In this document: positions 11,457 to 64,000 of the stretch, in pieces
Layout of the letters: every line of letters begins with the position of its first letter
How positions within the stretch are numbered: position 1 is the first letter of the stretch
Source: an uncultured archaeon
Lineage (GTDB): Archaea > Thermoplasmatota > Penumbrarchaeia > JASLWR01
Assembly: GCA_964430885.1 (NCBI GenBank)
Contig: CAYSHM010000006.1
Coordinates: 1-64,000 of the forward strand
Direction: 5' to 3'
Length of the DNA stretch: 64,000 nt
The notes under the pieces: model-generated
What the model was told of the DNA's origin: nothing
The model's database searches: none
What the model saw: the letters and a program-made list of their open reading frames with translations, nothing else
Position numbers and translations under genes: made by a program

Positions 11457-11779
11457 TAGAATTATTATCGTTCAATTCTGTAATTATCTTAATATAATAA
11501 AATTTATTCAGATTTCTCCGCCATTTTCTCTGCATTATTATTCTTGTAAAGGGGACACAGTCATATAGATTTATTTTCATTTTGATATGATGTGCTAATC
11601 AGAAGGTCCTTCAGGGGTTTTGGATGGTCTAAAAGGCGGACAACTTACTTCTAATATTCAATAGGAAAAATGGATTAATATTAAATATAAAATGCGGTAT
11701 AGTGTTGGGCTCAAATACAGGTATTTAAATTAGAATTTAGGGCACAATGAATACTCTTCATTAGGTGGGAGAGATACTA

Positions 11780-14700
11780 ATGGTAAAGGAAAATATTAAA
11801 AGTAAAGGTCTATCTATATCAGGTAGAGGCGGCGAAGACAAAGACAACATTAGCGTGTCCACCCGGTTCAAAAAATATTTTGGCTTTGGAGATTATGAAG
11901 GAGCGAATACTTGGTTGGCGAGGAATTGGTGGATCCTTCTAACGCTGGGGGGCATATTTCTACTAGGTTTGCTCATGAGGGCTTATTTCTATTATCCTTT
12001 GGCCAATGAGCTTGGCTTCTCAGGGAACGATCCCTATTATCACCAGCGAGTGATTGAACATATCCAGCAGCACCATACCCACCTTATAGAAGATGATCTT
12101 CTAAACTATCCTCTTTTCGCTACAAATCCGCGCCCTCCTTTCTTTGACTGGAGCGTAGCAATAATGGGAATATTCCTTGCCCCCTTTTTCGGATTCAATG
12201 TGGCTACTAGCACTGAGAGCCTGATGTATATTTCACCATCCCTCTGGGGTGCTCTCACGGTTATACCGGTTTACATGATCGGAAAAGAGATGTTTGGAAA
12301 GAAGGCCGGCCTTTTGGGTGCTTTCATCATGGCCACAATGCCCTCTCACATAGAGAGGTCGCCAGCAGGTTTCTCAGATCACGATTCTATCGTGGTTTTC
12401 TTTGTGGTATTATCCATTTTCTTCCTGTTCAGGGCTTTTAAAACCCTTGATCACCGAACTTGGGTAAAGGATTGGATGAATACCAACTCCATTTATGAAG
12501 GGATCACCGATTTCTTTTCAGCCAACCAGGTGGCAGTGTTTTATTCACTGCTTGCAGGAGTGAGTCTTTCCACAATAGCACTGACCTGGAAAGGTTTTCC
12601 CTATGCATTGGCAATAGTTTTCATCTATTTCCTGTTCCAGGTGACTTTTGACCGGTTCAGGAATGTTGATTCCACAGGAATATTTATCTGCATATTTCTG
12701 GCATTCTTCACAACACTTGTGGTATCCTATCCTTATTATATGAATCTGAGCTTCTCCACATGGATCACACCGCTTTATCTGTTATTATCCATAGTGATCA
12801 TAGGTTCCTTCCTGATATTCACTCAGAAATATCCATGGATCCTAGTGATCCCCCTGGGTGTGGTGGTGGCCATTGTTGGCTATCTCATTCTCAGTCTGAT
12901 AGCCCCCAATGTTGCCCAGGCCTTGGCAACTGGCCAGGGTTATTTCATTAAGTCAAAATTGTATTCAACGATCGCAGAGGCTCAGCCTCCCCAGTTCTCA
13001 AGACTGGCCGTGGCCTATTCGATATTCGTTTTCTTCTTTGCTCTTATTGGTATTGTGAGAGCAGCCATTCAGGTTCCGAAACACTGGAAGAAGGAGAATG
13101 TTTTCATTGTTGTTTGGGCAATTGTTGCCGTATACATGGCCATGTCTGCGGTCCGTTTCATGTTCAATGCAACACCGGTCATAGCTATCACTGCCGGATG
13201 GATATTGTATGAACTGGTGAAGAAGCTCAACGTCAAGAGCAAAATATTGATATTCTACATAATGGTCACTTTGGGATCATTGATAATCCTGGCATGGTGG
13301 GGAGTTGAGAACGACTTCTCATTGGGTTATCCCTGGATGATCTTCATAGGATTCTTAGCCCTTGTGGTGGTTCCGATTCTGATCGCAGTATACGATAATT
13401 ATGATAAATCAAAGACCAGTACCTATATTGTGGTGATACTGGGCGTATGGACATTGGCCAGCCTGGTAATGTTCATGATGGATGATAAGCTCAGCTGGAG
13501 CAATATCGGAGATGTCCTGGTGGACAATCTCAGTATTTGGTATTTCGGTCTGGCAGCCCTTTTGATTACTTTGGTCCCCATCATAATTCTGTTCTCAAAG
13601 AAGAGTTATGCCATCACTCATTTTCTCTCCATTGGATCAATAACCTTAATCCTCATGGGGCTGCGTAATTACGGTTTCTTTCAGGATTTCGTAGCGTCCA
13701 AGACATCTGAGATGCTGTTCGGTTTCTGCATACTTCCTTTGCTTGTTCTCGTTTTCAATCTCTATTTCCTTTATATGGATGAGAACTATATGAAGGACAG
13801 TGCCAGGAAGGTATTGATCATAGCTATGGAACTGTGGTTCCTGTCATTCTTCTTCAATCCGAATATCTATTTCGGAATAGTTTGCGCCATATTGATACTG
13901 GTCAACATCTATCTGTTGACCCCTTACAGAAAATCCTTCAAGCACAAGACAACACCCATGCATGTGCTGATAACTCTGTTTGCCACATTCTTCATACTTC
14001 TACCTCAGATGTGGTTTGCTATTGATGCTTCCCTGCCCTATGAGGATAAATGGGATATGAACCAGAACATGTATGATGCCATACCGGATATCATTGAGAG
14101 CGATAAAGCAGATGCAAATAAATATTTTGGAGCCTTCGGTCACGGTTTCACATCGGAATATTGGAGGGCGGCCTTCGATTGGCTAAGCGAGCAGGATAAT
14201 GACAAGATACCTTCGGAACGTCCGGCTTTTGTCAGCTGGTGGGATTACGGTTTCTGGTGTGCCTATATGGGTCAGCATCCCACTGCTGCGGATAACTTCC
14301 AGTACGGTTATCAGTTTGCGGGAAGTTTTATTTCATCCCAGAATGAGACTGAGGCAGTCAGTTTGATGATAGCCCGTCTCATCGAAGGTAATTACCTGAA
14401 TAATAAGCTTAAAAATGACATTAAGGACCTTTTTACTGATGATAAATATCTGGGCAGTGAGGAAAAGTACATCAGCATCATCTCCGGAAAGAAGCTGAAC
14501 GCAGCCGAAAAGGTCTGGGAGATAATGAACCACGGTGAGGATTATGTTGATATTATCAAGGATAATCCTGACCGATACGGAAAATATCTGGAACTTCTGC
14601 CGACCAATGCAAAATATGCAGCGGTCCGTGGAGTTCTCATGAATGTGGACCTTGAGACTCAGGTATCTCTTCTGAAGGACCTTGAGGATATGGTAAATAA

Positions 14701-17700
14701 AAATATCAGATATTTTGCTGTGGATTCAAGATTGTTCCCCTTTACAGCTCAGAATACCGGTATCTTCTATGCACCCATCAAATTGGCTGACAAGGATATA
14801 GATGAATTTCTTGAATATGTCGTGGAAACAACAGAAGGTGAGATGTCCATGGAAGAAGTTGAGGATAGGGTGGAGGAAGACCCGGATTTCCGTGAACAGA
14901 TCATAGATTACAAGCTAAAATATACGGACAACTTCTACAATTCGCTGTTTTACAGATGTTATATCGGTTACAGCGGAAAGGATCTAGGGAAGGGTGATCT
15001 GGGCGTACCTGCAATAGCACCTGAAGGGGAATTTGCTTCAGGTGGAAGCAGTTTCTATCCCATGCAGGGTTGGAACATGACCCATTTCAGATTGGTTTAC
15101 AAGACTATGTACTATACACCCAAATCGAGCAACAATGCTTCCTTCCCCGAGGATTATACTGCAATGAACTTTGATGAAGCTCAGGAACTTTATGAGGACC
15201 AGGGTGGTTATAGGATTTCCGGTTTGAAGAGCGGAGCATTTTTCCTGGAATACTATCCAGGGGCTGAAATGAGGGGTAGGGTATTGACAGAAGGTGATGA
15301 GCGGCAGCCTATGCCCGGAGTTAGAGTGGTGGTCTATGATGAGTATGGGATCCCCCATGACATGTCAATTACAGATGATGATGGTAATTATGAACTGATA
15401 TTACCTCCCGGAGAGAATACCATTGTGACCTCTACAGGAGGTTTTGGTGAGGAGGATACCGAACTTCAGGCCAGACTGATGATGCAGGAGACAACTGTTC
15501 TGAATCAGACCATCCTGACCGTTACCAAGGACCAATCTAACAGGATAACCGACCATATTATCAATAGGGACCTTATCATCAAGAAGGGTACCGTTGACGG
15601 AAAATTGTTCATCGATAACAATAACAACGGGGAGTACGACCGTCTTCAGGATGAAATCCTTAACGAAGGGATGGTTAAGATAGTCCAGGGCAAGAACAAA
15701 GATATTTTCTACGAGGAAGAGGTGGAGGATGAACTATACAATTTTACCACTGTCCTTCCAGGTGAATATGCTTTTACCGTGGGACTATACGGCCATGATG
15801 TTGAGATAGATGATAAACTCGCGGTGACCCCCAAGGCCAATGAAGAATTAAATATCTACACCAAGGACATAGGTATTGCACCAGCGAACCTATCGGGGCA
15901 GCTTACATTCAACAATGGCAGTAATGCCACTGAAATAATGGTGGTTCTTAAAGACACCCAGAACGGAACTGTTTATCAGTATGTGACCAATTCAACAGGT
16001 CATTATTATTTCGATGAGCTGCTGCCGGGTGATTTCGAACTGACAATCGAACAGTCACCATATGAAAAGGTGGACCGCACCGTGAAAATTGCCATGGGCG
16101 AGAAGAATTACCAGAACATCACACTTGTCCAGGTGGCCCCTGTTTCAGGCAGGGTATTTTTTGACAGTCTGGGCAACGGTTATGATATTGATGATTCAAT
16201 CGGCAACGCCCGGATTCGGTTCATACCTGATGACAGTGAAAAGAACATAACAATTGCTGTTAGCGGTTCGGATGGAAGATATGTCACCAACCTTTCATTG
16301 GGCCACTATACTATATATGTGGATTATGTGAATGGCGGACAGCATTATACATATCTCGGTGATATTGAGTGTATTGAGGGTGTGGAGAAGTTATGGGATA
16401 TTGAACTCTCACTTTCTTTCAGGGTTGAAGGTGAAGTTTCCTTTGGAAGTGATATTTGGCCCAAGGATAACTTCGACATCAACAACACAGAGGTTTCCAT
16501 CAGAAAAGAGTTTCTAACCATGAAACTTCCAGTTAATCTCTCAGGATATTATTCGACCTATTTACCTGTGGATGATTACTATATAACAGCATATCTGATT
16601 GAAGACGAATATACTGCAGGAATTGCAGGATCCTATATTGTTGGAGATGTAGATCAGGAAAGAACCCTTGATCTGGAGTGCGAAAAGGCCTTCAGTACCT
16701 CCGGTTGTATTTACTGGGATCGGGACGGCGACGGGAAGCTTACAATGGGCAACTCGTCCTTGGACGTTCAGGGTATCGTATTGGATATGGAGAACAACTA
16801 TCCTTACTTCGAGGATCCTTTAGCAGGCAGTGTGACAACTGATCCAAGCGGGACAACCACCACGGAAACTGTTCCAACCCAAACAACAGGAACCAGAGCC
16901 GACACCCGTCAGGAAGAGGATGGATCTCCTGAAGTGGACATATTTGAAAATCCCATAAATGGAACTGAGAATGAAACCCATGATTACGACCTCTATGAAA
17001 ATGTGACCGATGTCGTACTTGAATTTACCAAGGGAAACATGGTGTATCGAATAGTGACCAACGATACGGGTTTCTTCACAACATATCTGCCTAAGGGCGT
17101 ATATACCGTTGAAGTAAATTCTGTAGAATTGGATAATCTAAAAGCCACAATCAAGATAGGCGAGGATGAAGTGAACACTTTCACTCCTGAGATTTCCCCG
17201 AAAGAGACCGAATGCAGGATTAATATGGGAGTGGATAGGAACAATGATGATATTATTTCCCCTAATGAGCTTGTAGGCCGATATACCCTTTGGTTTAACG
17301 CGACCACTCCAGGAGCCCACAGCAAGCGTGTGGATTATATTGGTGGGGACACTACTATAGCATTATTGCCTGGGGTTTATGATATATCATACTCAAAGGA
17401 TTTCACGGACAATGGCATCGATGTAAGACACAGATTGGAAACAAATCTCTCTTTAAAAGTGGGGGAACTGGAAAAGATAGTGGACCTTTTTGTTCAGGAA
17501 ACTGTAAGGTTCAGGGGTAAGTCAGTGACTGAATTCGGCGAACCGGCGGATAATTCCACATTGAGTCTGGAATCCATTCTGGAAGGTAATGTACTTGAAG
17601 TTGTGTGCAACGAATTCGGTTATTTTGATATGTTTGTCCCCATTGGTAATTATTTCATCAATTCTAAATATACCACCGATTCTGGAGTTTACATACTGCG

Positions 17701-20023
17701 TAGATCTTTAGCTATCACATCCCTTGAAAAGGCCCCTACACTGATTTTCACAAAGGCCTATCCTTTGAACGTAACACTGTATTTTGATAAGAACGATGAT
17801 GGGAAATATCAGAGCACTGAGAAGCTCATGGACATACCCTTGACAATAACCGGAGATATAACCACTACCCATCATACAAATTACCAGGGTTTGGTATCAA
17901 CATCCCTGCTGCCTGATAAGGAATACTATATAAGCGTTCATCATACTTCGGCGGACTCAACTTACCGCCATATTGCCGAAACTACCATCATCAAAGAAAA
18001 ACAGGCCCAGGATATAAGAATTTCAGTGAGCAAGTATATCCAAGCTTCAGGCAAGGTTTATTGGGACCGGGACCTGAACAAGGTTTTCTCAACTGATGAA
18101 AAGATCATCGATGGAACCATTGAATTCATCAAGTCGGATTCCACCACGGCTGGGGAATATACCTTCCTTACTGGAAATGATGGCAAATGGTCGGGATATC
18201 TGCCGATCTTTCATAATAATACCCAGGAATTTGATGTGGTAATATCGGCACCGGGTTTTAAAGATGAACACGTGGAAAAAATGATCAAACCTTCTTCCAA
18301 AACCCTTGATGTGAGGATGGATCCCTTACCTGTTCTTTATACTGGCATGATTTTTGAGGACCTCAATAACAGCAACACTAAGGAAATCACTGAAGATATT
18401 CTTGCAGAGGTCGAACTTTCATTCATATCGATCTCAAAGACCGCCCTGAACGTTTCGGTCACCACCGATTCAAAGGGCCGATACAGCGTGCTAGTGTTCC
18501 CTGGCGAATATATGGTCAAATCCCTTGTAAAGGGCAGTCAGGTGTTCATCAGCGAGTTTAATGAAGAGGTAGTTCTTCTAGAGGATAAAAAGTTGGACAT
18601 CCCCCTGAAATTGGGCAAATATGTATTTGGAAGTGTTTCGTACATAGACACGAATGGCAATGAGCACAAAGATATTGATTCCCGGGAAAACGGTATTATT
18701 ATCAAGGGTCAGGATAACAATGTTGAGCGGGATCTGGAATTCAGCGATGGATTCTATGATACTTATCTTCCATATGGTTCATACTCTATTGAGATGAAAG
18801 GATATGATGCCGAGGAATATGAAAAGACCATGACCTATGAATTACCTAGGGATACCATCGTAATCAATGATTTCTATGATTTCTACAATCTGGATCTCGT
18901 CAAGGACGAGAAGAAGACCCTGGAATTGACCATCGTGGATCAAGTTGAAGAAATTACCTTCAATAGAACAATTAACCAAGGTGCCTCTGTTGAACTTGAA
19001 GTTATTGTAAAGAACAAGGGAAACATTCCCATGAACATAACTCTATCCGGAAATGAACTTCCGGAAGGATGGTCATTGGATATTGTGGACCGAAAGGCCG
19101 ATCTATGGTTGGATGAAGAGATGAGAACAAAGGTCACGGTCACTACATCTTTCGACGCCCTCAATACCAATGAGATAGAGATAGGAGCCGAATCAACTGC
19201 TGGATCAAAGGATGATGTTACACTGAAGATCAATACTCATCCTAAATACGAGGCCGAAGTATATACCGAAGATAAACTCGATAGGGGTTTCCTACAGAAC
19301 GGATCAAAGAATTTCAATATGACAATTAAGAATCTCGGAAATGCGGGGGATGATTTACTCTTTTATCTGGAAAAGAAAACCTCCGACCTCTGGAACATCT
19401 CTATCCAGAATGAAGAGCTGAATTCAACAGGTTATGCCTTTCACTATTCTCAAAAGGACATTTACAAGAATGTTACCATCAAGGTTGAAGCACCCAATTC
19501 TACATCAGACAACTGCAGATTTGTTATTGGTGTAAAGGGCAGGGGAGTTAACCAGAGATTATCTATCAACGGTACAATAACCAAACCTGACATTTCTATA
19601 AAGAATGTTGAGTTCAAGAATTTGGATCTTTTAGACAAGGATAGGAATGTCACTATGTATGTGACCCTTCATGCTTCTCAGGCAGATGTCGGAAAATTCA
19701 ACTTCACAGTTAAACTTGATGGTGAGAAGATCACTGAACTGTCTGAAACCATAGATAGCATTGAACAGGATGCTGATTACACAATGGTATTCGATTGGAA
19801 TCTTTCGGATGAAGTGGGAAAACACAAACTTGAGCTTGAAGTTGATCCAGAGGATCAGATAATGGAATCTGATGATACTGTGAACAATATCTGGGTGGAT
19901 GACGGATTCAAGGTTGGCACTGATGACGATGATTTCAATTGGAGAATAGTTATCGCTGTTGTGGTGGTATTGATCATAGTAATAGTGTCCTATGTGATTT
20001 GGAGGAAGAAACAGGTAGTATAA
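11780..20023 (+). CDS. aglB: Giant oligosaccharyltransferase AglB (STT3 family) fused to carboxypeptidase-regulatory/SdrD-B-like, Ig-like and CARDB domains, with a C-terminal TM
   Basis: GNDPYYH, FSDHD, STIAEAQ, SWWDYG and ADNFQ STT3 motifs; ~1600 aa of repeated G.VY.D.D.DG beta-sandwich modules; LEVDPEDQIMESD…NN CARDB motif. Confidence 0.9.
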   Translation: MVKENIKSKGLSISGRGGEDKDNISVSTRFKKYFGFGDYEGANTWLARNWWILLTLGGIFLLGLLMRAYFYYPLANELGFSGNDPYYHQRVIEHIQQHHTHLIEDDLLNYPLFATNPRPPFFDWSVAIMGIFLAPFFGFNVATSTESLMYISPSLWGALTVIPVYMIGKEMFGKKAGLLGAFIMATMPSHIERSPAGFSDHDSIVVFFVVLSIFFLFRAFKTLDHRTWVKDWMNTNSIYEGITDFFSANQVAVFYSLLAGVSLSTIALTWKGFPYALAIVFIYFLFQVTFDRFRNVDSTGIFICIFLAFFTTLVVSYPYYMNLSFSTWITPLYLLLSIVIIGSFLIFTQKYPWILVIPLGVVVAIVGYLILSLIAPNVAQALATGQGYFIKSKLYSTIAEAQPPQFSRLAVAYSIFVFFFALIGIVRAAIQVPKHWKKENVFIVVWAIVAVYMAMSAVRFMFNATPVIAITAGWILYELVKKLNVKSKILIFYIMVTLGSLIILAWWGVENDFSLGYPWMIFIGFLALVVVPILIAVYDNYDKSKTSTYIVVILGVWTLASLVMFMMDDKLSWSNIGDVLVDNLSIWYFGLAALLITLVPIIILFSKKSYAITHFLSIGSITLILMGLRNYGFFQDFVASKTSEMLFGFCILPLLVLVFNLYFLYMDENYMKDSARKVLIIAMELWFLSFFFNPNIYFGIVCAILILVNIYLLTPYRKSFKHKTTPMHVLITLFATFFILLPQMWFAIDASLPYEDKWDMNQNMYDAIPDIIESDKADANKYFGAFGHGFTSEYWRAAFDWLSEQDNDKIPSERPAFVSWWDYGFWCAYMGQHPTAADNFQYGYQFAGSFISSQNETEAVSLMIARLIEGNYLNNKLKNDIKDLFTDDKYLGSEEKYISIISGKKLNAAEKVWEIMNHGEDYVDIIKDNPDRYGKYLELLPTNAKYAAVRGVLMNVDLETQVSLLKDLEDMVNKNIRYFAVDSRLFPFTAQNTGIFYAPIKLADKDIDEFLEYVVETTEGEMSMEEVEDRVEEDPDFREQIIDYKLKYTDNFYNSLFYRCYIGYSGKDLGKGDLGVPAIAPEGEFASGGSSFYPMQGWNMTHFRLVYKTMYYTPKSSNNASFPEDYTAMNFDEAQELYEDQGGYRISGLKSGAFFLEYYPGAEMRGRVLTEGDERQPMPGVRVVVYDEYGIPHDMSITDDDGNYELILPPGENTIVTSTGGFGEEDTELQARLMMQETTVLNQTILTVTKDQSNRITDHIINRDLIIKKGTVDGKLFIDNNNNGEYDRLQDEILNEGMVKIVQGKNKDIFYEEEVEDELYNFTTVLPGEYAFTVGLYGHDVEIDDKLAVTPKANEELNIYTKDIGIAPANLSGQLTFNNGSNATEIMVVLKDTQNGTVYQYVTNSTGHYYFDELLPGDFELTIEQSPYEKVDRTVKIAMGEKNYQNITLVQVAPVSGRVFFDSLGNGYDIDDSIGNARIRFIPDDSEKNITIAVSGSDGRYVTNLSLGHYTIYVDYVNGGQHYTYLGDIECIEGVEKLWDIELSLSFRVEGEVSFGSDIWPKDNFDINNTEVSIRKEFLTMKLPVNLSGYYSTYLPVDDYYITAYLIEDEYTAGIAGSYIVGDVDQERTLDLECEKAFSTSGCIYWDRDGDGKLTMGNSSLDVQGIVLDMENNYPYFEDPLAGSVTTDPSGTTTTETVPTQTTGTRADTRQEEDGSPEVDIFENPINGTENETHDYDLYENVTDVVLEFTKGNMVYRIVTNDTGFFTTYLPKGVYTVEVNSVELDNLKATIKIGEDEVNTFTPEISPKETECRINMGVDRNNDDIISPNELVGRYTLWFNATTPGAHSKRVDYIGGDTTIALLPGVYDISYSKDFTDNGIDVRHRLETNLSLKVGELEKIVDLFVQETVRFRGKSVTEFGEPADNSTLSLESILEGNVLEVVCNEFGYFDMFVPIGNYFINSKYTTDSGVYILRRSLAITSLEKAPTLIFTKAYPLNVTLYFDKNDDGKYQSTEKLMDIPLTITGDITTTHHTNYQGLVSTSLLPDKEYYISVHHTSADSTYRHIAETTIIKEKQAQDIRISVSKYIQASGKVYWDRDLNKVFSTDEKIIDGTIEFIKSDSTTAGEYTFLTGNDGKWSGYLPIFHNNTQEFDVVISAPGFKDEHVEKMIKPSSKTLDVRMDPLPVLYTGMIFEDLNNSNTKEITEDILAEVELSFISISKTALNVSVTTDSKGRYSVLVFPGEYMVKSLVKGSQVFISEFNEEVVLLEDKKLDIPLKLGKYVFGSVSYIDTNGNEHKDIDSRENGIIIKGQDNNVERDLEFSDGFYDTYLPYGSYSIEMKGYDAEEYEKTMTYELPRDTIVINDFYDFYNLDLVKDEKKTLELTIVDQVEEITFNRTINQGASVELEVIVKNKGNIPMNITLSGNELPEGWSLDIVDRKADLWLDEEMRTKVTVTTSFDALNTNEIEIGAESTAGSKDDVTLKINTHPKYEAEVYTEDKLDRGFLQNGSKNFNMTIKNLGNAGDDLLFYLEKKTSDLWNISIQNEELNSTGYAFHYSQKDIYKNVTIKVEAPNSTSDNCRFVIGVKGRGVNQRLSINGTITKPDISIKNVEFKNLDLLDKDRNVTMYVTLHASQADVGKFNFTVKLDGEKITELSETIDSIEQDADYTMVFDWNLSDEVGKHKLELEVDPEDQIMESDDTVNNIWVDDGFKVGTDDDDFNWRIVIAVVVVLIIVIVSYVIWRKKQVV

Positions 20024-21000: not shown

Positions 21001-22428
21001 ATGACATTGATACTACCTGGAGTAGAGATAGAAGTAGTAAAGGAAATAGTTGTCGGACAACTGAATCCCGCTGGAATTTTCGGCCTTGTGGGAATTACCG
21101 AGGAAAATGAGGACGGAACTCCAAAAGCTGTGGATAGAGAAGGGTCTTACAAAGGATTAAAGGGACTTTTCGGAAAGAGTATCGAATTCACCATTCCTGA
21201 AGCTAAACAGGCTTATCAGAACGGTGTTTCAGAGATTGTTGTATCACCGATACATAGTGCCTCAGCCAAGGCGGCGATCCTTGCATTAAACGATGCAAAG
21301 GGAAACAAGGTAGCTACCCTGACCGCCAGGGCCAGGGGAGTCTGGGGGAACGGTATCAACGTGAAGATCAGTTCCAAGATGGACGGAGAGGGAAAAAAGA
21401 CCCTTTTCACCATGACCCTTGCATATAAAGGAGCAGTGGAATTTTATGACAATCTATCCATGGTCGAGACCAATGATAGATATTTCGTAAATATAGTAAA
21501 TCAGCTCTCCGATCTTATCCGTATGGAAGCAGGAAAAGCCGCAGGCGGTAAAAAGGGAAAGGACGCCGCAGCAGCTCTAGAACTTCCGGCAGATTTTGAA
21601 GGCAGTCTTTCTGGAGCTACAGATCCCACCGCAAAGGACTACGAAGATGCCCTTTCCAAGCTGGAGAGCGAGGAGGATGTGGACCTTGTAGCAGCATCCG
21701 TCCATACATGGAAGGACCGAGGGTTGGCCAAAAGTGTTTATGCCGCTATTGAGGCACACTGCAATGTTATGAGCCAGAACTGTTTCAACAGGATTGGTTT
21801 CGGTGAAGCTCCGCCTCCTGAAGAATTTGCAGACCAGAAGGACGAGGTCGATTTTATCACCAAGCAGACCAATGTCCTCAACAGCGACAGGTTTGTTTAT
21901 GTAGCCCCCCACGGCGCACTAGGTGCTGTTGTCGGTCTAATAGGCAATCTGAACTACTACCAATCACCCACCTTCAAGACCCTGAGCGGGCTGACTGGTT
22001 TGGAGAGCAAATATTCTCCTACCAACCTCAAGAAACTCCTGGTGGCCAAGATACTTGCGCTTGAGATAAAGAAGGGCAGAGGGATCATTATTGAGAAAGG
22101 CATCGCTACTTCAGGCGAACAGATCTCAGTTCAGAGAGTAGCCGACAGATCAGTAAGAGGTACAAAGATGATCGGCGACCTCTTCATAGGGACTCTCAAC
22201 AACATGTCCGGCAGGGCAGCTTTAAAGGAGAAGATCACCGAGTTCTTCCTGCAGATGGAGAAGGACGGCGGTATTGTTCCAAATGCTGACGGATCCGACC
22301 CGGCCTACAAGGTCGATGTATATGCCACCGACGATGATATCTCAAAAGGTATCGTCAGAGTGGATGTGGCTGTCAGACCGGTAAGAGCCATTGACTATAT
22401 CTACGGAACAATCCTTGTCAGGGCATAG
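21001..22428 (+). CDS. Contractile tail sheath protein (phage sheath/eCIS type)
   Basis: N-terminal LPGVEIEV, TARARGVWGNGINVKI, E.YDNLSM…RYF..IVN, and C-terminal ISVQRVAD…FIGTLN…VDVAVRPVRAIDYIY; GGAGG SD at 20989-20993. Confidence 0.88.
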   Translation: MTLILPGVEIEVVKEIVVGQLNPAGIFGLVGITEENEDGTPKAVDREGSYKGLKGLFGKSIEFTIPEAKQAYQNGVSEIVVSPIHSASAKAAILALNDAKGNKVATLTARARGVWGNGINVKISSKMDGEGKKTLFTMTLAYKGAVEFYDNLSMVETNDRYFVNIVNQLSDLIRMEAGKAAGGKKGKDAAAALELPADFEGSLSGATDPTAKDYEDALSKLESEEDVDLVAASVHTWKDRGLAKSVYAAIEAHCNVMSQNCFNRIGFGEAPPPEEFADQKDEVDFITKQTNVLNSDRFVYVAPHGALGAVVGLIGNLNYYQSPTFKTLSGLTGLESKYSPTNLKKLLVAKILALEIKKGRGIIIEKGIATSGEQISVQRVADRSVRGTKMIGDLFIGTLNNMSGRAALKEKITEFFLQMEKDGGIVPNADGSDPAYKVDVYATDDDISKGIVRVDVAVRPVRAIDYIYGTILVRA

Positions 22429-51066: not shown

Positions 51067-54000
51067 TCAGCTTTCTAACTGAGCGAGCAGATTCTCGATC
51101 TTCTTAGATGTTGATTGTTTTGGTCCTGGGGCCGGTGGAGTGTTTACAGCCGATGTAGATGGCTGAACCGGGGCGGTTTTGGGGGGTTGAGTTGTAGGGA
51201 TGGTAGTCGTGGGTTGTGTAACAGGTAATGTTCTAGCCGGTGTTGTTACCGGGACCGTCTTTGGTGGTTGGGTTACAGGTGCAGTAGTCGCAGGCCGTGT
51301 CACAGGTACTGTTTTAGCCGGTGTTGTTACCGGGACCGTCTTTGGTGGCTGAGTTGCAGCAACCGGTTGGGTTACAGGTGCAGTAGTCGCAGGCCGTGTC
51401 ACAGGCACAGTTTTGGCCGGTATTGTTGTTACCGGGATAGTATTTGGCGGTTCTGTAGTTGTAACCGGTATTGTCTTTGGAGCATCCATTCCTTCCTGCT
51501 GGCTGGTTTCGGTCTGCTCAGGCAGAAGCTTCATTTCCGTACCTGGCTGTTGATCAGTTGATAATGGCAGTGATACTGTGGGTGTATCCTGAACTCCGTA
51601 GGCAGTCTCTCCTTGGTATTGAGCATCCTGTTCGTAATCCTGACCATAATACTCCTGAGACTGATCATAATACTCCTGAGACTGATCATATTGCTCATAT
51701 TGACCGTATTGGTCGTATTGCATCTGCTGCTGGCCTGCAGGAGCCATCGCTCCGGGATATCCGTACTGATCCTGCTGACCGTACTGCATATAGGACTGTC
51801 CCATTGGCTGCTGCTGAGGATATTGCTGCAGTGCTGCCCCTGCCTCCTGTTCAGGCATATCTTCATCAAGGAGATCGTCAAAATCAAGGTCGTCTATCAG
51901 GGTTGTACCTTCCTTAAGATCGTAATCGTCCGTTGCATCATACTTGAGTTCCCTAACACTGTATTTGCTTCTAATGATCGCCAATGCAAGAAGGATTATT
52001 ATAAAGCCGGCCATCACAATAAGCGATGCGTAAAGCCAGTCTTCAGGAGTGACGCTATCGTGATCATCGTGATCATCGTCATCATCTCCATTATCGTCAT
52101 CAATTTCAAGGACGCGTATCTTAGCGGTTCCTATATTATTTCTGGTATTGTTATCATCGATTCCAGTCAGCTCAACTGTAAGATTGAAAAGGCCTTTCTC
52201 GTTGAAGGTATATTCAAAGTTCTTGATCTCATAGACATTCCGCTCCAGATAGGTAATGTTCGTTTTGAATACCGGATTGTTCCTTCCCTCGACGTAAACT
52301 GCAATATCCAGTACATTGCCGAACTTGTTTGAATCAAAATATTGGTTGCCTTGATTGACCACTCCGAACTTGAAATTGATCCTCTCTTTTTCCTTCACCT
52401 TGTATCCGTCTGTCTTGGTGATCTCGTTTATGTAAATATCAGTACAACCGAACTCGAATTCAACTACCCGGATTATTACCTTGGTGGTTTTAACAGTGTC
52501 CGCTCCAAGTGTGATCCTTCCCAATATCTCAAAGGTGTATGCTTTAAGTTCCACATTCTTGGGCGGGCTGAAAGTAAGAGAGAAACTCTTTGTTTCCTTA
52601 TAGGACAGGTAAAGATTTTTCTGCGCTAATAACCCCCAGTCCTCACCATGTATCAGGAACGAAAGGGTCACATCCGAGTTCCCAGTGTTCTGGATCTCGA
52701 GATCTATTACGGTTGCCCCTCCCGGTATGGCATCATAGGTTACATTTGTAGTGAGGAATTGAAAATCCAGAGTTTCCAGAACTTCTACAATGAATAAATG
52801 CTGGAAAGTAATGTTCTCGTCCCCTTCTGAAGCCAGAACAAGCGTGAACTCATAATCCTTAGCTGAGGCGCCGTAGGGAATCTTGATATTGAACCCGAAT
52901 GTTCCGTTGAGTCCGAAGTCGACCTTGAATCTCTTCTCACCGATGTATATCCAATCCGGATACATTGATTCAATTGCAAAGATATAGGTATCCATTATAT
53001 TACCGATATTTGTAATTCGTGATTCGAATGATATATTGTCCCCTATATGCCCTTTCTTTTCAGTGATATTATAGAATATCTCAGCCTTGAAAACCGATAC
53101 AACATCAACTGTAAGCGCCACGCTGTCCTCATATACAAGAGGATCATCTGAAAGTACATTTACAATAAAGGTGTATTTCCCCACTGGCGTACTGGGAGGC
53201 ACCTTTATCCTCAACTCGATATCAGCGTCTAGGCCCTTTGGAAGACCCCCTTCTCTAATGTTTGTAGTATCGAACCACCATTCCCATCCCGCTGGATCTG
53301 AGGGATACTTGGCTACAACAAAGGTTCCTTCACTACCAATAATATCATCTAGACTGTTACCTACATTTTCAATGGTGAATACGAATGTTGTATAGTCCAG
53401 GGGTTGGCCTTCCTCGGGTTCGGGGGTCCCTTTGATTTCTATATCATAGATCTTTCTCACAGAAGTCTCCACCCAGGAATTCCATTTAGGTTCTTCCCTT
53501 TTAACAATAGGTTTTGCCCACAATGATGTGATCTGGGTCTGTCCGGCATCCGCCTCCATAGGTACAAACAATATTACGGATATGATTATTGTATCGCCCA
53601 TCTCAATGTTCAAGATCTCCTGGGTGTCATCTACCAGCTGAACAAGCCATTCATAGTCGGAGGATTCCGGCCATACATCATAGATGTCGTCACCGTTGCC
53701 GAGATTGGTTACCTGGAAATCGTAGATGAGCTGCTGGCCAGGGTCTACCTGCTGTTTTTCAGGCGTGGATATGTCGAGCATGTGGTCCAATCCAACCTCC
53801 ACTACAAATGGGATCATAGATATATTAGCCGGTGCCAATTTAGATTTCAAGGTGATGTCGATAGAATAATTGCCCACAGTGGCATTGTAGATGTCGCCTA
53901 CTATGATCTTTACTGTAAGACTTTTTACCCTTTCTGATTCAGGAGAGGGGCTGTTAAAGGGCGGTATTCTGTCGAATTTATCAGGATAAAGGATAATCTG

Positions 54001-54327
54001 CCAACCTGCAGGCGTATTGGTTTCCACAACGTAATCATCGACCATGTTTCCCATGTTTCTCACAGTGCAGTTCAGGACCACCAGGTCCCTTGGGAAAGCT
54101 TTCTTTGAGATGTTCTCATCAGTTTCAAGGAGAGGTGTGAACTTAGCAGCCCGCTTCTGGGATAAAGAATCCGTTTGGGGACTGTTCTCAGTTCCTAGAA
54201 TACCTACATTATTCCTATAGGAAAACATAGTTGCATCCAGACTGTTGAAAAGTATGATGAAGACAATTAGAATAGCCAATGATAATAGGTTTCGTTTATT
54301 TTGAGATCCCTTCTTCAAACATATCAC
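51067..54327 (-). CDS. Large single-pass surface protein: tandem Ig-like (COG1470/NPCBM-associated-like) and CARDB domains, TM, low-complexity tail
   Basis: Signal-like N-terminus; repeated (V/I).N.GN..D module starts; one TM near aa 765-787; acidic, Q/Y-rich and P/T-rich tail. Confidence 0.8.
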   Translation of the reverse strand: MICLKKGSQNKRNLLSLAILIVFIILFNSLDATMFSYRNNVGILGTENSPQTDSLSQKRAAKFTPLLETDENISKKAFPRDLVVLNCTVRNMGNMVDDYVVETNTPAGWQIILYPDKFDRIPPFNSPSPESERVKSLTVKIIVGDIYNATVGNYSIDITLKSKLAPANISMIPFVVEVGLDHMLDISTPEKQQVDPGQQLIYDFQVTNLGNGDDIYDVWPESSDYEWLVQLVDDTQEILNIEMGDTIIISVILFVPMEADAGQTQITSLWAKPIVKREEPKWNSWVETSVRKIYDIEIKGTPEPEEGQPLDYTTFVFTIENVGNSLDDIIGSEGTFVVAKYPSDPAGWEWWFDTTNIREGGLPKGLDADIELRIKVPPSTPVGKYTFIVNVLSDDPLVYEDSVALTVDVVSVFKAEIFYNITEKKGHIGDNISFESRITNIGNIMDTYIFAIESMYPDWIYIGEKRFKVDFGLNGTFGFNIKIPYGASAKDYEFTLVLASEGDENITFQHLFIVEVLETLDFQFLTTNVTYDAIPGGATVIDLEIQNTGNSDVTLSFLIHGEDWGLLAQKNLYLSYKETKSFSLTFSPPKNVELKAYTFEILGRITLGADTVKTTKVIIRVVEFEFGCTDIYINEITKTDGYKVKEKERINFKFGVVNQGNQYFDSNKFGNVLDIAVYVEGRNNPVFKTNITYLERNVYEIKNFEYTFNEKGLFNLTVELTGIDDNNTRNNIGTAKIRVLEIDDDNGDDDDDHDDHDSVTPEDWLYASLIVMAGFIIILLALAIIRSKYSVRELKYDATDDYDLKEGTTLIDDLDFDDLLDEDMPEQEAGAALQQYPQQQPMGQSYMQYGQQDQYGYPGAMAPAGQQQMQYDQYGQYEQYDQSQEYYDQSQEYYGQDYEQDAQYQGETAYGVQDTPTVSLPLSTDQQPGTEMKLLPEQTETSQQEGMDAPKTIPVTTTEPPNTIPVTTIPAKTVPVTRPATTAPVTQPVAATQPPKTVPVTTPAKTVPVTRPATTAPVTQPPKTVPVTTPARTLPVTQPTTTIPTTQPPKTAPVQPSTSAVNTPPAPGPKQSTSKKIENLLAQLES
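51235..51440 (-). repeat. Intragenic tandem repeats encoding P/T/V-rich units (KTVPVTTPA / RPATTAPVTQP)
   Basis: Near-identical DNA blocks such as GCCGGTGTTGTTACCGGGACCGTCTTTGGTGG and GGTTGGGTTACAGGTGCAGTAGTCGCAGGCCGTGTCACAGG each occur twice. Confidence 0.85.
51645..51690 (-). repeat. 21-bp perfect tandem duplication (YDQSQEY x2)
   Basis: CATAATACTCCTGAGACTGAT twice in tandem. Confidence 0.85.
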
Positions 54328-59519: not shown

Positions 59520-60620
59520 TCAACCAAGATATTGCACTAGGAATTTTTCCTTGAACTCCGGGAATTCGTCCTTTCTTATTGCATAACGAATGCGCTCCAT
59601 TAGACTCATCATAAAATACAGATTATGTAATGTGAGCAATCTCATTGCCAGCAGCTCCTTCACCTTGAACAGATGATATAGATATGCCCGGGTGTGCTCC
59701 CTGCAGGAGGGACATTGACAGCCTTCTTCAATTGGCCCGAGGTTTTCCTTGAATAATGTGGCATTGACATTGATAGTGCCGTAATTTGTAAGTGCCGACT
59801 GGTGTCTTGCGTTTCTTGTGGGAAAGACGCTGTCGAAGAGATCTACTCCCATATCCACAAGATTGATGATGTCCTCCGGAGTTCCTACACCCATGAGGTA
59901 CTTTGTCTTATCAAGGGGTAGGATGTCCAGCTGGAGCCTTGTCATATCATACATCTCCTGCTTGCTCTCTCCTATGCATAGCCCGCCTATACCGTATCCT
60001 CCGCACTGCAGATCTGCCAGTTCCTCAGCACTTTTTTTCCTAAGATCGGGGAATGTCCCTCCTTGGGCTATCAGGAACACCAGCTGATCATTTCTATTAT
60101 GTTTTCTAAGGAATATACCAGCCCAGTCAGTGGTTCTTCTCACCGCGTCAGCCACTCGTTCTCTGCCGCTGCCGTGAGGAGGACAATCATCCAGCATCAT
60201 TGCGATATCGGACCCAAGGGTTTCCTGAACCTCAACACACTTTTCGGGGGTGAAAAGCTCTGTCTTTCCATCGTACGGACTTTTCAGAAGTACGCCTCTG
60301 TCGGTGACCTTTGGTTCAAACCCTGATCTTATTATCTGAAATCCGCCTGAATCCGTGAAGATGGATCGATCCCAGTTCATTAAACCGTGAAGTCCTCCTG
60401 CCTTTTTGATAAGATCATGCCCCGGTCTTAGGTGAAGCAGATAGGCGTTGGCAATGAAATTATCAACACCAAGTTCTATAAGATCTCTGGAAGCTAATGT
60501 TTTTACCGAAGCCTTTGTGGCCACCGGCATGAAGCAGGGCATCTGCACTTCACCGTGGGCTGTGTGCAGTATTCCGGCCCGAGCCTTTGATCCTGTAGAA
60601 GTATGTGTGATTTCTAACAT
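59520..60620 (-). CDS. tgt: tRNA-guanine(34) transglycosylase, bacterial type
   Basis: FMPVAT, NAYLLHLRPG, TDSGGFQ, DDCPP, GGLCIGE, YLMGVG, FDSVFPTRNAR, CQCPSC…HNL Zn site; 366 aa with no PUA domain. Confidence 0.9.
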   Translation of the reverse strand: MLEITHTSTGSKARAGILHTAHGEVQMPCFMPVATKASVKTLASRDLIELGVDNFIANAYLLHLRPGHDLIKKAGGLHGLMNWDRSIFTDSGGFQIIRSGFEPKVTDRGVLLKSPYDGKTELFTPEKCVEVQETLGSDIAMMLDDCPPHGSGRERVADAVRRTTDWAGIFLRKHNRNDQLVFLIAQGGTFPDLRKKSAEELADLQCGGYGIGGLCIGESKQEMYDMTRLQLDILPLDKTKYLMGVGTPEDIINLVDMGVDLFDSVFPTRNARHQSALTNYGTINVNATLFKENLGPIEEGCQCPSCREHTRAYLYHLFKVKELLAMRLLTLHNLYFMMSLMERIRYAIRKDEFPEFKEKFLVQYLG

Positions 60621-60735: not shown

Positions 60736-63700
60736 TCATCGGGAATATGGTTTTTCCTGCCCACCTATCTTAATTGTTCTTCCATCTGAACTGCCATGAC
60801 CTGACATTTTGTCCGATCCGAAATCGTACCTGTTCGCATCAGGGTCGCCCTGTTTGTTGGATTTCAAAACCTCAACCCGTCTTCTAGCACTGTTTGGATT
60901 GGAACTGCTGACCTTGTTCCTGGCAGCAATATCCCTATGGACCACGCCTTCTTGATGAAGCGGGGGAACAGGGTCGAGTTCTGGTGCAGGCCCTGCTGAA
61001 GCAGTTGTATTGGACCTTGACGAATTATAATCCTGTGCTTTAGTGCCTCCTGAGCCTCCGGAACCACTTCCTCCTGGTTCCTGCATAAGCTGCGGAGAGC
61101 TCATATCAATTGGTTTAGATATTTTTGGTGGTTTTTCTGGGTCCATCCTGGCCGAGGTAGTGTTTGACCGTGACGAATTGTAGTCTTGGGCTCTTGATGC
61201 ACTACCTGCTGATGAGCCAGCTGCGGCTGCCTGCCCATATTTCACCCTGCCGGGTCTTTTTCTTAGTAGTGGATCTTCACCTGTATCCGCCTGTGGCTGA
61301 ATCCTATTTGTCCGTGTTGTGTTATGATTAGCAGGCGATGCGGTATCGATATCACTCCCTCCGTTCTTTTTTAGCGTTCCGCCAGGCCTTTTTCTTACAA
61401 CTTTATCATTACCATTGCGGAGTATATCATCGCCGCTTTCCACCCCGCTTGTTGTATTTGACCTTGAAGAGTTGTAATCCTGTGCTCTGCTTTGATATTG
61501 ATCATATCCCTTTTTCCCGGAAAATCCTCCTGAAGCCGGTCCCGCAGCAGAGGCAGGTTCATACATAGGATTCTCCCCCTGATTACCGTTCCCCTGATAC
61601 AGGGGGTTGTTGCTAGAACGTCCCGATCCTTTGGTTAGAATACAGCCCAAACCTCCTAATATAAGACCCGATACCAGACCGAGGAGTACCCATGGAAGGA
61701 TACTCTCCTTCTCATCAGTTTTGTTCTTAGATAATAGGGTGTTAGGGACTTCATTTACATCTGAAGGATCAGTTCGATTTTCGTATTCCTCCATGTTTGA
61801 GAATCCATCACCGTCATCATCTGCCTGCGAGTCGTCGACCTTGGGATCTGTGCCGTGTTCACTCTCCCATCCGTCGGGGAGACCATCTCCGTCTGTGTCC
61901 GAATCGTTCACATCCGTGCCCAACCGTATTTCCTCAACGTTTGTAAGGCCGTCCCCGTCTTTATCGTACATGGCATCGAATGGGTCCAATGGGTCCAACC
62001 CATAAGATAATTCGTCGGAATCCAGTATGCTGTCCCCGTCGTCATCATCATCCAGAGCATCGGAGATTCCATCCCGGTCGGTATCCATATAGGCATCAGG
62101 GTCCAGTGGGAATGCGTCAGTGCTATCATCTATCCCGTCCCCGTCATCATCATCATCCAAAGCATCAGCTATACCATCCTTATCGGTATCGGAAGGAAAT
62201 GAAGTGTTATCCTCTGGATCGGATCCCAACAGCTCTTCTATGGCATCTGGCCAACCATCCCGATCCTTGTCCAGGCGACCCTCCCCAGAACTGTTCATAT
62301 TGTATTCATTTTCAGTCAGGTTTCCCGCGGGTAATACGACCGTAATAACTGCTGAATCGGTCCCCGTTAATCCCTGTTGGTCCATGACTTTGAGTTTGAT
62401 CCGATAATTTCCCGGCTCTTCAGGGTGAAATGTGAACCATTTTTCATATATCTCAGCTGATGTACCGTTGAATTCAATGGTCCAGGTATAATTGTCTATC
62501 CCAATATTATCCATGCTGGAATTGCCGGAAATTGTATTTCGGTCCCCCAGAACTATCATTTCCTCGGTCTCAATTACTGCATTTGGAGCATGAATATCGA
62601 ATAATGGTCTGGTATAGATGGGAGAAAGATTGAAATTGCCGGAGATGTCGCTTGAATTGAATATATAACTCAGGTTGCTGGAAAGGTTGTTAATCATAAG
62701 AAAATTGTTCCAATGATCGAGCTGACCACCTTCCATTGTGAGGTTCATCTTTTGTCCCTGTCCATACCAGTATTGCATGGTTACCATTTCCACTTCAATA
62801 TTATCATAGGAGGATGCTGTGAAGAGAACGTTTTCTCCTGCAATAATCTTCGGTTCACCTGCTTCCATTACCTCAGGCGGTATCCTGTCCAGAACCGCCA
62901 TTTCTCTTGCGGGTGTATTCATTGTATTGCCCGCCATGTCCTCGGCGAGTATGGTATGCGTGATATTACCCATGATATCGTCAGGGATCGTTAGATTGTA
63001 GCTCCAGTACCCTCCACCCTGATGTTCCATTGTGTGTTTGTGCGTAATACTATCTTCATACATAGTTATCTCAAGGATGACTTCTTTCAGCCCGATATCA
63101 TCAAAGACCTGGGCGCTGAATTCCCAGTACTTCCCGGAAAATGCTGGGCCTTGCATTGTTTTGTCAACTATCACCGGTGATTTAATGTCTCTGGGAATAA
63201 CCCTGGGAAAACTATCCTGGACCGGTTTCATTCTATCAGGGATATCTATTTCATAAGGCGTGTTCCAGATGTATGAATCATAAGTAGCGTTGGGATATCT
63301 TTCTGACATATCTGACCAATAATTTCCTATTCCGCCGTTGTCCCATTTGTTATTGTACCCCGCGTCCTTAGCCTGAACGCCACCGTTGTTGTTATCGGCA
63401 AAATTGTTGCTGTAAATTGATATGGATGTCGTTTCGAACCTCAGATGTAGGCCGTAAATCTGATTCCCCAATAGAGAGTTGTTCCTGATCAGAATGTTGT
63501 AGGAGGCCAATATTGAAAAACCATACTTGCCGCCAGTAGCAGTGTTGTTGTCTATGATGACGTTCCCGGTATTGTTGAGAAACAGTCCCGCTCCTTGGCT
63601 GTCGATCATATAATTGTCCTTTATCATCACATTCTGAACATTGAACAGGGATATACCTCCGTTTTCAAAATACTTGTTTGTTCCTCCATTAACGCTTTTG

Positions 63701-64000
63701 ATGGAGTTGCCCTGTATTATGATATAATCAGTAGTATTTCCAATATAAATGCCGTGTCCGTAACCTACACCGTGAATATCCCAGCCGCTGATGATGTATG
63801 GATCATCCTTGGTTCCGTTCCCGCCGTTTGTTCCATTTTCGGGTGTTAGATCCTTTCCGCTGTTAATAATTATAGGTTCCCGGACATTGTCTCTGGGGTC
63901 GCCCTTATCCATGACTCTTTCATTTTCATCTATCTCGTCCGTACCTGATACCCATGTAAATATAAAAGGAACCATGAATATCGTGATTATCAAAGCAATT
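60736..64000 (-). CDS. Single-pass surface protein (5' end beyond the window): NosD/beta-helix, Ig-like, PKD and Ca-binding DxDxDG repeats, TM, ~300-aa motif-mosaic tail
   Basis: The frame stays open to the window edge; G.GTKDDPYII and parallel beta-helix repeats, GNYWSD, SMDNIGIDNYTW…PGNY PKD, TM ILPWVLLGLVSGLILGGLGCIL. Confidence 0.85.
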   Translation of the reverse strand, partial: IALIITIFMVPFIFTWVSGTDEIDENERVMDKGDPRDNVREPIIINSGKDLTPENGTNGGNGTKDDPYIISGWDIHGVGYGHGIYIGNTTDYIIIQGNSIKSVNGGTNKYFENGGISLFNVQNVMIKDNYMIDSQGAGLFLNNTGNVIIDNNTATGGKYGFSILASYNILIRNNSLLGNQIYGLHLRFETTSISIYSNNFADNNNGGVQAKDAGYNNKWDNGGIGNYWSDMSERYPNATYDSYIWNTPYEIDIPDRMKPVQDSFPRVIPRDIKSPVIVDKTMQGPAFSGKYWEFSAQVFDDIGLKEVILEITMYEDSITHKHTMEHQGGGYWSYNLTIPDDIMGNITHTILAEDMAGNTMNTPAREMAVLDRIPPEVMEAGEPKIIAGENVLFTASSYDNIEVEMVTMQYWYGQGQKMNLTMEGGQLDHWNNFLMINNLSSNLSYIFNSSDISGNFNLSPIYTRPLFDIHAPNAVIETEEMIVLGDRNTISGNSSMDNIGIDNYTWTIEFNGTSAEIYEKWFTFHPEEPGNYRIKLKVMDQQGLTGTDSAVITVVLPAGNLTENEYNMNSSGEGRLDKDRDGWPDAIEELLGSDPEDNTSFPSDTDKDGIADALDDDDDGDGIDDSTDAFPLDPDAYMDTDRDGISDALDDDDDGDSILDSDELSYGLDPLDPFDAMYDKDGDGLTNVEEIRLGTDVNDSDTDGDGLPDGWESEHGTDPKVDDSQADDDGDGFSNMEEYENRTDPSDVNEVPNTLLSKNKTDEKESILPWVLLGLVSGLILGGLGCILTKGSGRSSNNPLYQGNGNQGENPMYEPASAAGPASGGFSGKKGYDQYQSRAQDYNSSRSNTTSGVESGDDILRNGNDKVVRKRPGGTLKKNGGSDIDTASPANHNTTRTNRIQPQADTGEDPLLRKRPGRVKYGQAAAAGSSAGSASRAQDYNSSRSNTTSARMDPEKPPKISKPIDMSSPQLMQEPGGSGSGGSGGTKAQDYNSSRSNTTASAGPAPELDPVPPLHQEGVVHRDIAARNKVSSSNPNSARRRVEVLKSNKQGDPDANRYDFGSDKMSGHGSSDGRTIKIGGQEKPYSR
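61003..61485 (-). repeat. Three dispersed copies of the peptide AQDYNSSRSNTT
   Basis: Copies at 61450-61485, 61156-61191 and 61003-61038; identical amino acids, different codons. Confidence 0.95.
61750..62275 (-). repeat. Thrombospondin type-3-like Ca-binding repeats
   Basis: DKDRDG, DTDKDG, DDDGDG, DTDRDG, DKDGDG, DTDGDG, DDDGDG units with E…G.DP spacers. Confidence 0.85.

Follow-up and report, generated by a model that had tools for sequence, protein, structure and literature searches.

What keeps a short peptide unchanged when the codons that spell it, and the residues around it, have drifted apart? This question is raised by a 64,000-nt stretch of DNA from an uncultured archaeon (positions 1 to 64,000 of contig CAYSHM010000006.1, hereafter the window), in which a surface-protein gene (60736..64000, minus strand) encodes the twelve-residue motif AQDYNSSRSNTT, hereafter the word, three times in its C-terminal tail. 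Sequence search placed copy 1 at 61450..61485, copy 2 at 61156..61191 and copy 3 at 61003..61038 (all on the minus strand), with exactly the codons listed in the first-pass annotation and with the reported 9, 5 and 9 differing codons out of 12 in the pairwise comparisons, all of them synonymous. The nucleotide differences were likewise 9, 5 and 9, corresponding to 1.04, 0.60 and 1.04 synonymous differences per synonymous site (pS; ca. 8.5 sites) versus a non-synonymous equivalent (pN) of 0 (ca. 27 sites). The flanks are indeed unrelated, the 36 nt on each side of the copies being only 8–15/36 identical (i.e., about random), and the variant NHNTTRTN was found where it had been reported (61306..61329, minus strand; sequence search), inside a PANHNTTR word that is common to 20 proteins of the set described below. 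The pattern [DN][YH]N[ST][ST]R[ST]N was observed four times in the tail versus never in 20,000 shuffles of that tail, and a six-frame translation of the whole 3.13-Mb genome (6,269,186 codons) matched it four times, all within the word gene, leaving no match in this genome beyond the four in the tail. Chance does not account for the repeated motif.

The first-pass annotation had proposed an old motif held by selection at the level of the peptide, and this proposal is borne out by the saturation of synonymous sites without amino-acid change, by retention of the word in orthologs, and by its varied spellings. Specifically, the orthologs P0002, P0004 and P0008, which share the architecture of the window protein and have ectodomains that are 32–34% identical, retain the exact word, with 3–7 copies of it or of close variants, rather than mutating it freely. 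The word is also kept in an ortholog from a related genome (L044) and in one from a Thermoplasmata metagenome-assembled genome (MAG; L136). Across 316 unique instances the consensus reads GG[TS][RK]AQD[YH]NSSRSN[KTRN][TS][SA][SA][IV], with D at –2 in 276/316, Y or H at –1 in 297/316 and S at +4 in 311/316 (the N, R and N of the word logo being fixed by the search pattern). The core can thus be written as D-[YH]-N-x-[ST]-R-S-N, its usual form being (R/K)AQD(Y/H)NSSRSN.

At the DNA level, 57 instances of AQDYNSSRSN were spelled in 46 different ways, using every synonymous codon, with both Ser and both Arg codon families represented. The mean pairwise nucleotide identity between these loci was 22.4/30, versus 22.7 expected from pooled codon use, which rules out conservation of the word as DNA. 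For the three serines of the word, the codon family in use was constant within a gene and a lineage and differed between lineages, i.e., TCN/AGY/AGY in Marinifilum, TCN/AGY/TCN in Woeseiaceae and Maricaulis, and TCN/TCN/TCN in the window archaeon and several others. This fixation by lineage is more readily explained by old descent, with duplication inside lineages, than by recent transfer. The first Ser was encoded by TCN in 57/57 instances, while the second and third switched between TCN and AGY by lineage. On the evidence of these comparisons, AQDYNSSRSNTT is an old peptide element preserved by selection on its amino-acid sequence.

In public databases, hundreds of proteins carried D[YH]NxSRSN, from Thermoplasmata as well as from at least eight bacterial phyla, and some of them belong to cultured strains. 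Searched twice with the tail as query, the databases yielded 42 proteins at E ≤ 1e-3 (among 8000 scored candidates) and 73 proteins at E ≤ 1e-3 (9 of them ≤ 1e-10), respectively, together amounting to 104 different proteins, 82 of which carry D[YH]NxSRSN. A 42-column profile of the word and its flanks matched 245 proteins at E ≤ 1; among the 120 of these matches that were listed, 84 were additional to the proteins already found, and the word was present in 84/84. Most proteins found by the profile are domain-less hypothetical proteins of 110–250 residues, and the locus search with the whole protein returned only a TSP3-repeat protein without words.

Moreover, back-translated patterns were scanned over one genome per species (185,579 species). 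AQDYNSSRSNT was found at 23 loci in 18 assemblies, belonging to Marinifilum (six assemblies, isolates included), Woeseiaceae, Maricaulis, Aliikangiella marina, Cellvibrionaceae, Puniceicoccaceae, Chitinophagaceae, Crocinitomicaceae, Planctomycetales and one unclassified bacterium. The related pattern [AV]QDHNSSRSNK was found in 101 stretches, and the 80 matches listed comprise many Bacteroidota, Verrucomicrobiota, Planctomycetota, Myxococcota and Fibrobacterota, several Proteobacteria, two Bacillota-type MAGs and one Thermoplasmata archaeon, with Aeoliella sp. SH292, Agriterribacter humi and Terrimonas sp. R1 as isolates. AQDYNSSRSNT had no match in 2.9 million viral contigs, ruling out a virus-borne element.

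The product of the word gene (identical to database protein P0001) is a type-I-like surface protein of 1107 residues, encoded in one uninterrupted frame that likely starts with an ATG at contig position 64059 (after GGAGGTG and 59 nt past the window end) and that stops at 60736–60738. An N-terminal hydrophobic signal or anchor segment (residues 15–38; 63946..64000, extending past the window end; Kyte-Doolittle maximum of 2.83) is followed by a right-handed beta-helix/NosD-like domain (63304..63795; Pfam Beta_helix 9.7e-12 and NosD 1.6e-11), a PKD domain (62338..62592; Pfam PKD_4 3.4e-7), Asp-rich TSP3-type calcium-binding repeats (61760..62226; Pfam TSP3_bac 1.5e-7 in three stretches, with limits read from the sequence), and a second transmembrane (TM) helix succeeded by K/R (residues 787–808; 61636..61701; hydropathy 2.26), all on the minus strand. 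Because it contains 23 N-x-S/T sequons versus 8.7 expected, the segment between both hydrophobic stretches is most likely an extracellular glycoprotein domain. The remaining 299 residues (60739..61635, minus strand) constitute the S/G/A/R/P/N-rich tail, which is predicted to be cytoplasmic and, from composition and AF2, disordered; in a single-sequence AF2 model, 229/324 residues had a pLDDT <50 and the TM helix alone was confident. The presence of two N-x-S/T sequons in each copy of the word, pointed out at first pass as odd for a cytoplasmic tail, was confirmed together with that predicted location.

The source genome is archaeal and probably belongs to Thermoplasmatota: it carries a small-subunit rRNA with a full-length match to the archaeal model (1503 bits), and its glycyl-tRNA synthetase is nearest to enzymes of Thermoplasmatota MAGs (≤50% identity). 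The gene sequence recurs unchanged in contigs that the same study obtained from a different sample (X3), and a run of a second study (X5) contains a short piece of it, both being marine/seawater metagenomes (gene parts without cover in X3 to X5 carry no meaning). One 233-nt contig from an RNA library covers 61379–61610; as DNA can occur in such a library, this is a hint of transcription but no proof.

The predicted placement of the words differs between archaea and bacteria. All seven full-length archaeal-type proteins examined (i.e., that of the window and six others) carry a hydrophobic segment at the N-terminus, and a single TM helix plus basic residues precedes the words, with the N-terminally truncated P0006 showing the TM helix alone before its tail. 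In bacteria, by contrast, the word is mostly carried on exported proteins, a point that the first-pass annotation had missed (hydropathy and inspection by eye were the basis for calling signal peptides, sorting signals and topology). Taken over 63 complete carrier open reading frames (ORFs), an N-terminal hydrophobic segment was present in 59, a count from a crude test that is biased upward because the test itself picked the start codon. The words lay in the last third of the protein in 41/63, and there were 1 to 7 copies per ORF, with a single copy in 31/63. The Marinifilum carriers are outer-membrane-barrel-like, with 5–7 words and a very basic C-terminal stretch at the end, and those of Woeseiaceae, Maricaulis and Aliikangiella are small proteins with signal peptides. 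Crocinitomicaceae carriers have one word just ahead of an apparent type IX secretion system (T9SS) sorting domain, and the Aeoliella carrier ends in an apparent PEP-CTERM signal (both named by eye). Finally, four RHS proteins (P0123, P0175, P0194 and P0143) carry words after the RHS-associated core, where the variable polymorphic toxin is normally located; Rhs_assc_core spans residues 1547–1615 in P0123, with words from 1621, and 1540–1606 in P0175, with words from 1671. An AF2 model of the bacterial beta-helix carrier P0063 (mean pLDDT of 39.7) was uninformative on the conformation of the word.

It had likewise escaped the first-pass annotation that the motif is one among many shared words. 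Within the TM helix and tail of the window protein, 148/321 residues lie in exact 5-mers common to at least three other proteins of the set. Judged from such sharing, QDYNSSRSN is the commonest unit of a vocabulary of nearly invariant words of 8–25 residues, which are joined by variable Gly/Ser/Asp-rich linkers. At least three of 11 word classes are carried by 47/104 proteins, and seven by the window protein, each of whose tail words is, in its own genome, restricted to the word gene.

Along the tail (all on the minus strand), the word NNPLYQGNGNQGENPMYE at 61558..61611 (NPxY, eight residues, NPxY; NNPLYQGN..GENPMYE) is common to 21 proteins, and its counterpart in P0053 matches Pfam Integrin_b_cyt above the cut-off (model 25–44/44; 7.5e-8; 32.4 bits versus a cut-off of 23.4). 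GKKGYD(xY), at 61501..61518 and common to 16 proteins, stands directly after the TM helix in orthologs P0002, P0004 and P0008. VRKRPG at 61381..61398 (identified by 5-mer sharing) is a short form of the RKRPGR word, and LRKRPGRVKYG at 61234..61266 is common to 20 proteins, with longer forms in P0098 and L021 matching Pfam Phage_T4_gp19 positions 29–67. KPIDMSSPQLM at 61084..61116 (5-mer sharing, SSPQL) is a degenerate version of K-x-I-D-K-S-[ST]-P-x-L, the full form of which lies within Pfam T6SS_HCP matches in L021, the window copy being linked to it by resemblance alone. The word EGVVHRDIAARN at 60916..60951 is common to 9 proteins, and its form GIVHRDLAARNI in P0016 and P0009 matches Pfam PK_Tyr_Ser-Thr. 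Finally, RRRVEVLKSNKQGDPDANRYDFGSD at 60811..60885 is common to 41 proteins and makes up the C-terminus of orthologs P0002, P0004 and P0008.

In the relatives, these family matches cover only the best-conserved segment of each model. The giant Planctomycetales protein L021/P0056 matches T6SS_HCP in seven partial stretches (1.1e-41; best 32–78/129), Phage_T4_gp19 (4.9e-14; model 29–67/134) and GTP_EFTU (0.0071; model 39–66/188). EF-Tu (NCBIfam) is matched by P0014 and P0006 (1e-5; model 50–74), Bac_DNA_binding (HU) by P0098 (2e-5; model 53–75/90), PK_Tyr_Ser-Thr partially by P0009 (9.2e-8) and more weakly by P0016 and P0082, and eCIS_core by P0053 (0.0095; model 59–77/79). No NCBIfam family matched the window tail at E ≤ 1, nor did any PDB sequence, and no curated repeat family covers the motif, which the first-pass annotation had considered might belong to one. 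The word-rich P0003 and P0046 gave nothing relevant in Pfam/NCBIfam, PADLOC matched 0/7 proteins, PHROGs returned nothing relevant and a search of the ESM Atlas gave no usable match.

Three further arrangements were seen among these relatives. In P0175 (residues ~1620–1914), a GHVTVLK word is repeated a dozen or more times, interleaved with DYNSSRSN words, and it is also present in P0047, P0123, L021/P0056 and the Aeoliella protein L081. In P0082 (residues 238–307), QDYNSSRSN stands between the kinase catalytic-loop word GVIHRDVAAR and the P+1-loop word PVRWMAPEAL, so that three words follow the kinase loop order and are all spanned by Pfam PK_Tyr_Ser-Thr (model 114–178). In P0076 (residues 200–400), repeats of ~95 residues consist of an Hcp-type N-terminal word, the gp19-type RKRPGRVKYGDITLKRG and an Hcp-type IDKSTPxLM; these modules might be real miniature tube-like domains instead of loose words.

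Known systems resemble this element in part. Like eukaryotic short linear motifs (SLiMs; e.g., the NPxY of receptor tails), the word is a short peptide that lies in a disordered region (by the single-sequence model), that is conserved amid diverging flanks, and that is repeated, as SLiMs are for multivalency; the neighbouring tail word that matches Integrin_b_cyt in P0053 is even of the NPxY-x8-NPxY type. However, SLiMs have 2–4 fixed positions versus ~9 here, identical across archaea and many bacterial phyla, and the word occurs on both membrane sides and has no known reader domain. With the cassettes of RHS/polymorphic toxins, the words share their place after the RHS core in the four proteins mentioned above, the swapping of modules between unrelated carriers and a patchy distribution across genomes. 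Known cassettes, in contrast, are folded enzymes or pore formers with an adjacent immunity gene, whereas the words form unfolded strings, RHS repeats are absent from the window protein, and the gene downstream of it encodes a tRNA-guanine transglycosylase (TGT) rather than a small immunity protein. Bacterial effectors mimic host motifs (e.g., repeated EPIYA-type motifs), and they too have disordered regions in which short peptides modelled on motifs of other organisms' proteins are repeated; such effectors have a single motif, one pathogen lineage and a known host reader, while the words number in the dozens, copy motifs of bacterial, phage and eukaryote-type families, and occur in free-living marine, freshwater and soil microbes. 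Searching the literature by motif and word strings, by concept and by Pfam names returned no description, which differences in wording or supplements could hide, and on this string-based search we rate the word as belonging to no described kind.

The reading we favour, with roughly even confidence, is that the word is an old element recognised at the peptide level, situated in a modular region for display or payload that probably acts between cells. It would be a linear epitope, recognised in peptide form by a protein whose gene is not beside the word gene. The words, strung by linkers, form collage modules that are probably disordered. In bacteria, these modules are borne by exported proteins, behind signal peptides or outer-membrane barrels, ahead of T9SS/PEP-CTERM sorting signals, or after the RHS core at the toxin position, and in Thermoplasmata-like archaea they make up the tail that follows the membrane anchor in beta-helix surface glycoproteins. 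Taken as a unit, the module would probably serve cell–cell contacts, whether displayed or delivered as payload, and not the housekeeping of its producer.

A number of observations weigh against this reading. The words are on the predicted cytoplasmic side in the archaeal proteins and on exported proteins in bacteria, and therefore no single resident partner reaches both; this is the chief difficulty for models that posit one resident reader. No reader protein or candidate partner was found. The tail was present in 1/40 related genomes, so that the gene is patchy and therefore dispensable. Disorder of the tail is taken from one single-sequence AF2 model and from composition. Moreover, sharing of the word within the protein set is partly by construction, because the set was gathered by tail likeness. 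Lastly, the window tail has no Pfam match even at E ≤ 10, the links to families coming from longer forms in relatives, and the QDYNSSRSN word itself could be placed in no family.

A more elaborate proposal, which we consider rather unlikely, is that the collage modules are polyvalent mimicry devices, in which each word copies the segment through which some widespread machine or abundant protein interacts or assembles, and which could jam the injection apparatus of competitors or trigger their sensors. The families recognised would be Hcp and gp19 tubes, VgrG-, needle- and pilin-like ends, the EF-Tu switch I, the HU arm, kinase loops and the integrin tail, with QDYNSSRSN as an unassigned member or a common handle. 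The word string would be displayed, shed or delivered as RHS payload, and would compete with or falsely trigger partners in other cells. If true, such mimicry would be a peptide-level interference system common to archaea and bacteria.

Other explanations do without a reading protein of this kind. The word might be a modification acceptor, either for N-glycosylation (by an oligosaccharyltransferase or a cytoplasmic N-glycosyltransferase) or for Ser/Thr phosphorylation, with its context required by the enzyme. The extended bacterial sequon is D/E-x-N-x-S/T, and D-Y-N-S-S fits it; the search pattern places an N-x-[ST] in all instances, most of which have the above-mentioned D at –2, a second N-x-[ST] follows in ~72% of them (T/S at +7, 227/316), the ectodomain is rich in sequons, and the own genome encodes an STT3/AglB domain (11765–20020). 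Nevertheless, general N-glycosylation by an oligosaccharyltransferase is unlikely to be the reason for the word, because the tail is predicted to be cytoplasmic, because the R-S-N outside the sequon, which no sequon requires, is as invariant as the sequon itself, and because STT3/PglB was found in 0/5 bacterial carrier genomes by a search that was positive in four archaeal controls. The second sequon is moreover often lost, and a role as modification acceptor in general seems unlikely as well. A small chance is also given to an intrinsic physical role without any partner, i.e., as a turn or hairpin, a metal or mineral site, or a self-associating sticker. This would accommodate the occurrence of the word in both compartments, which a resident partner leaves unexplained, its position between strand-like segments in Chitinophagaceae L010 and L012 and in beta-helix P0063, and its Asn/Ser/Tyr/Arg-rich composition. 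However, nine nearly invariant positions across two domains of life exceed the needs of a turn or sticker, the companion words copy interface motifs of unrelated families, and the AF2 models were uninformative.

It is improbable that the words are peptides released from a multi-core precursor, cut before AQD at a basic residue and perhaps after SSR, for signalling or in the manner of ribosomally synthesized and post-translationally modified peptides (RiPPs). An R or K does occupy –5 in 204/316 instances, the word of Aliikangiella L015 apparently comes straight after the signal peptide, so that AQDYN... could be the mature N-terminus (site by eye), and the copy number varies from 1 to 7 per ORF. 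Yet, where a RiPP multi-core precursor would be short and would adjoin a maturase or transporter, the carrier here is a membrane protein of 1107 residues, and in many carriers (31/63 ORFs) the word occurs just once, within a linker. The word gene is not adjoined by any gene for a maturase, protease or transporter (beside TGT and a thiolase-like ORF; the upstream ORFs were not Pfam-scanned), nor was any seen beside the genes in the Marinifilum, Woeseiaceae or Maricaulis loci. Slightly less probable still is the view of the words as functionless remnants, hitch-hiking cassettes or relics of decayed domains, for which a LacI-type hinge would be the candidate source. The patchy distribution (1/40 relatives), a third-codon-position GC content of the tail of 0.395 versus 0.44–0.54 for neighbouring genes, and partial tube-like domains beside the words in L087, P0006 and P0076 would agree with it, as would the one match of the word profile to solved chains, i.e., the LacI-family hinge ...SSRSNTIGVIVP, at an E-value of 0.76 that is weak and not significant. 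Under neutrality, however, nine residues should not have stayed fixed while synonymous sites reached saturation, the viral contigs searched lack the word, and no mobile-element genes were noticed among the inspected neighbours (some Pfam-scanned, others as ORF starts only). That the three copies merely reflect a recent tandem DNA duplication or an assembly artefact can practically be dismissed: nothing more than the repetition itself speaks for it, a recent duplication is ruled out because the codons of the copies differ (9, 5 and 9 synonymous differences in 12 codons) amid unrelated flanks, and the sequence is identical in independent contigs of X3, with a short piece in X5.

As for the genomic neighbourhood, word-encoding matches were restricted to one gene in 4/4 bacterial genomes scanned, although in one of them the pattern also matched loosely at two other sites, which encode different peptides; three carriers are present in one Crocinitomicaceae MAG. 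No neighbour gene was conserved across the loci inspected (small word genes and Marinifilum genes), the neighbours varying case by case. In the window, the word gene is followed downstream by TGT (366 residues; 59523–60620, minus strand; Pfam TGT 6.9e-139), which has the catalytic domain alone with no C-terminal extension seen, and then by an ORF read by eye as a thiolase. Upstream of the word gene and beyond the window, at 64282–78001 of the contig (C6), lie five large ORFs (522–1505 residues), at least four of which have an N-terminal hydrophobic stretch; because of these hydrophobic N-termini, the word gene may be part of a surface-protein neighbourhood.

Elsewhere in the window, the above-mentioned STT3/AglB domain (STT3 4.1e-19 plus AglB core) is N-terminal in an ORF of 2752 residues (11765–20020, plus strand), where it is fused to CarboxypepD_reg, NOMO-like and CARDB beta-sandwich domains, making for an unusually long transferase fusion. 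A lone phage-tail-sheath-like protein is encoded at 21001–22425 (plus strand; Phage_sheath_1 1e-12, Phage_sheath_1C 1.1e-7), between this giant AglB fusion and a gene for a radical SAM/HHH protein. A link of the word gene to contractile injection was dropped, as no gp19-type tube gene was found in the own genome and the lone sheath-like gene is 40 kb away. Finally, an ORF of 1086 residues at 51070–54327 (minus strand) has a hydrophobic N-terminus and no Pfam match at E ≤ 1e-3.

Prokaryotic proteins are usually viewed as chains of folded domains, and to our knowledge invariant linear motifs that are common to different domains of life are almost without example. Here, a nine-residue core is kept exactly in Thermoplasmata and at least eight bacterial phyla despite saturated synonymous change. 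Since cultured carriers exist (Marinifilum, Aliikangiella, Aeoliella, Terrimonas and Agriterribacter), the question of its function is directly testable. If the words are read by proteins, they would constitute an unannotated layer of peptide-level recognition between microbes. Such a layer would account for the hundreds of hypothetical proteins that lack domains and for a class of unfolded RHS payloads, as well as for the odd partial Pfam matches by which kinase, integrin and EF-Tu "domains" appear in bacteria.

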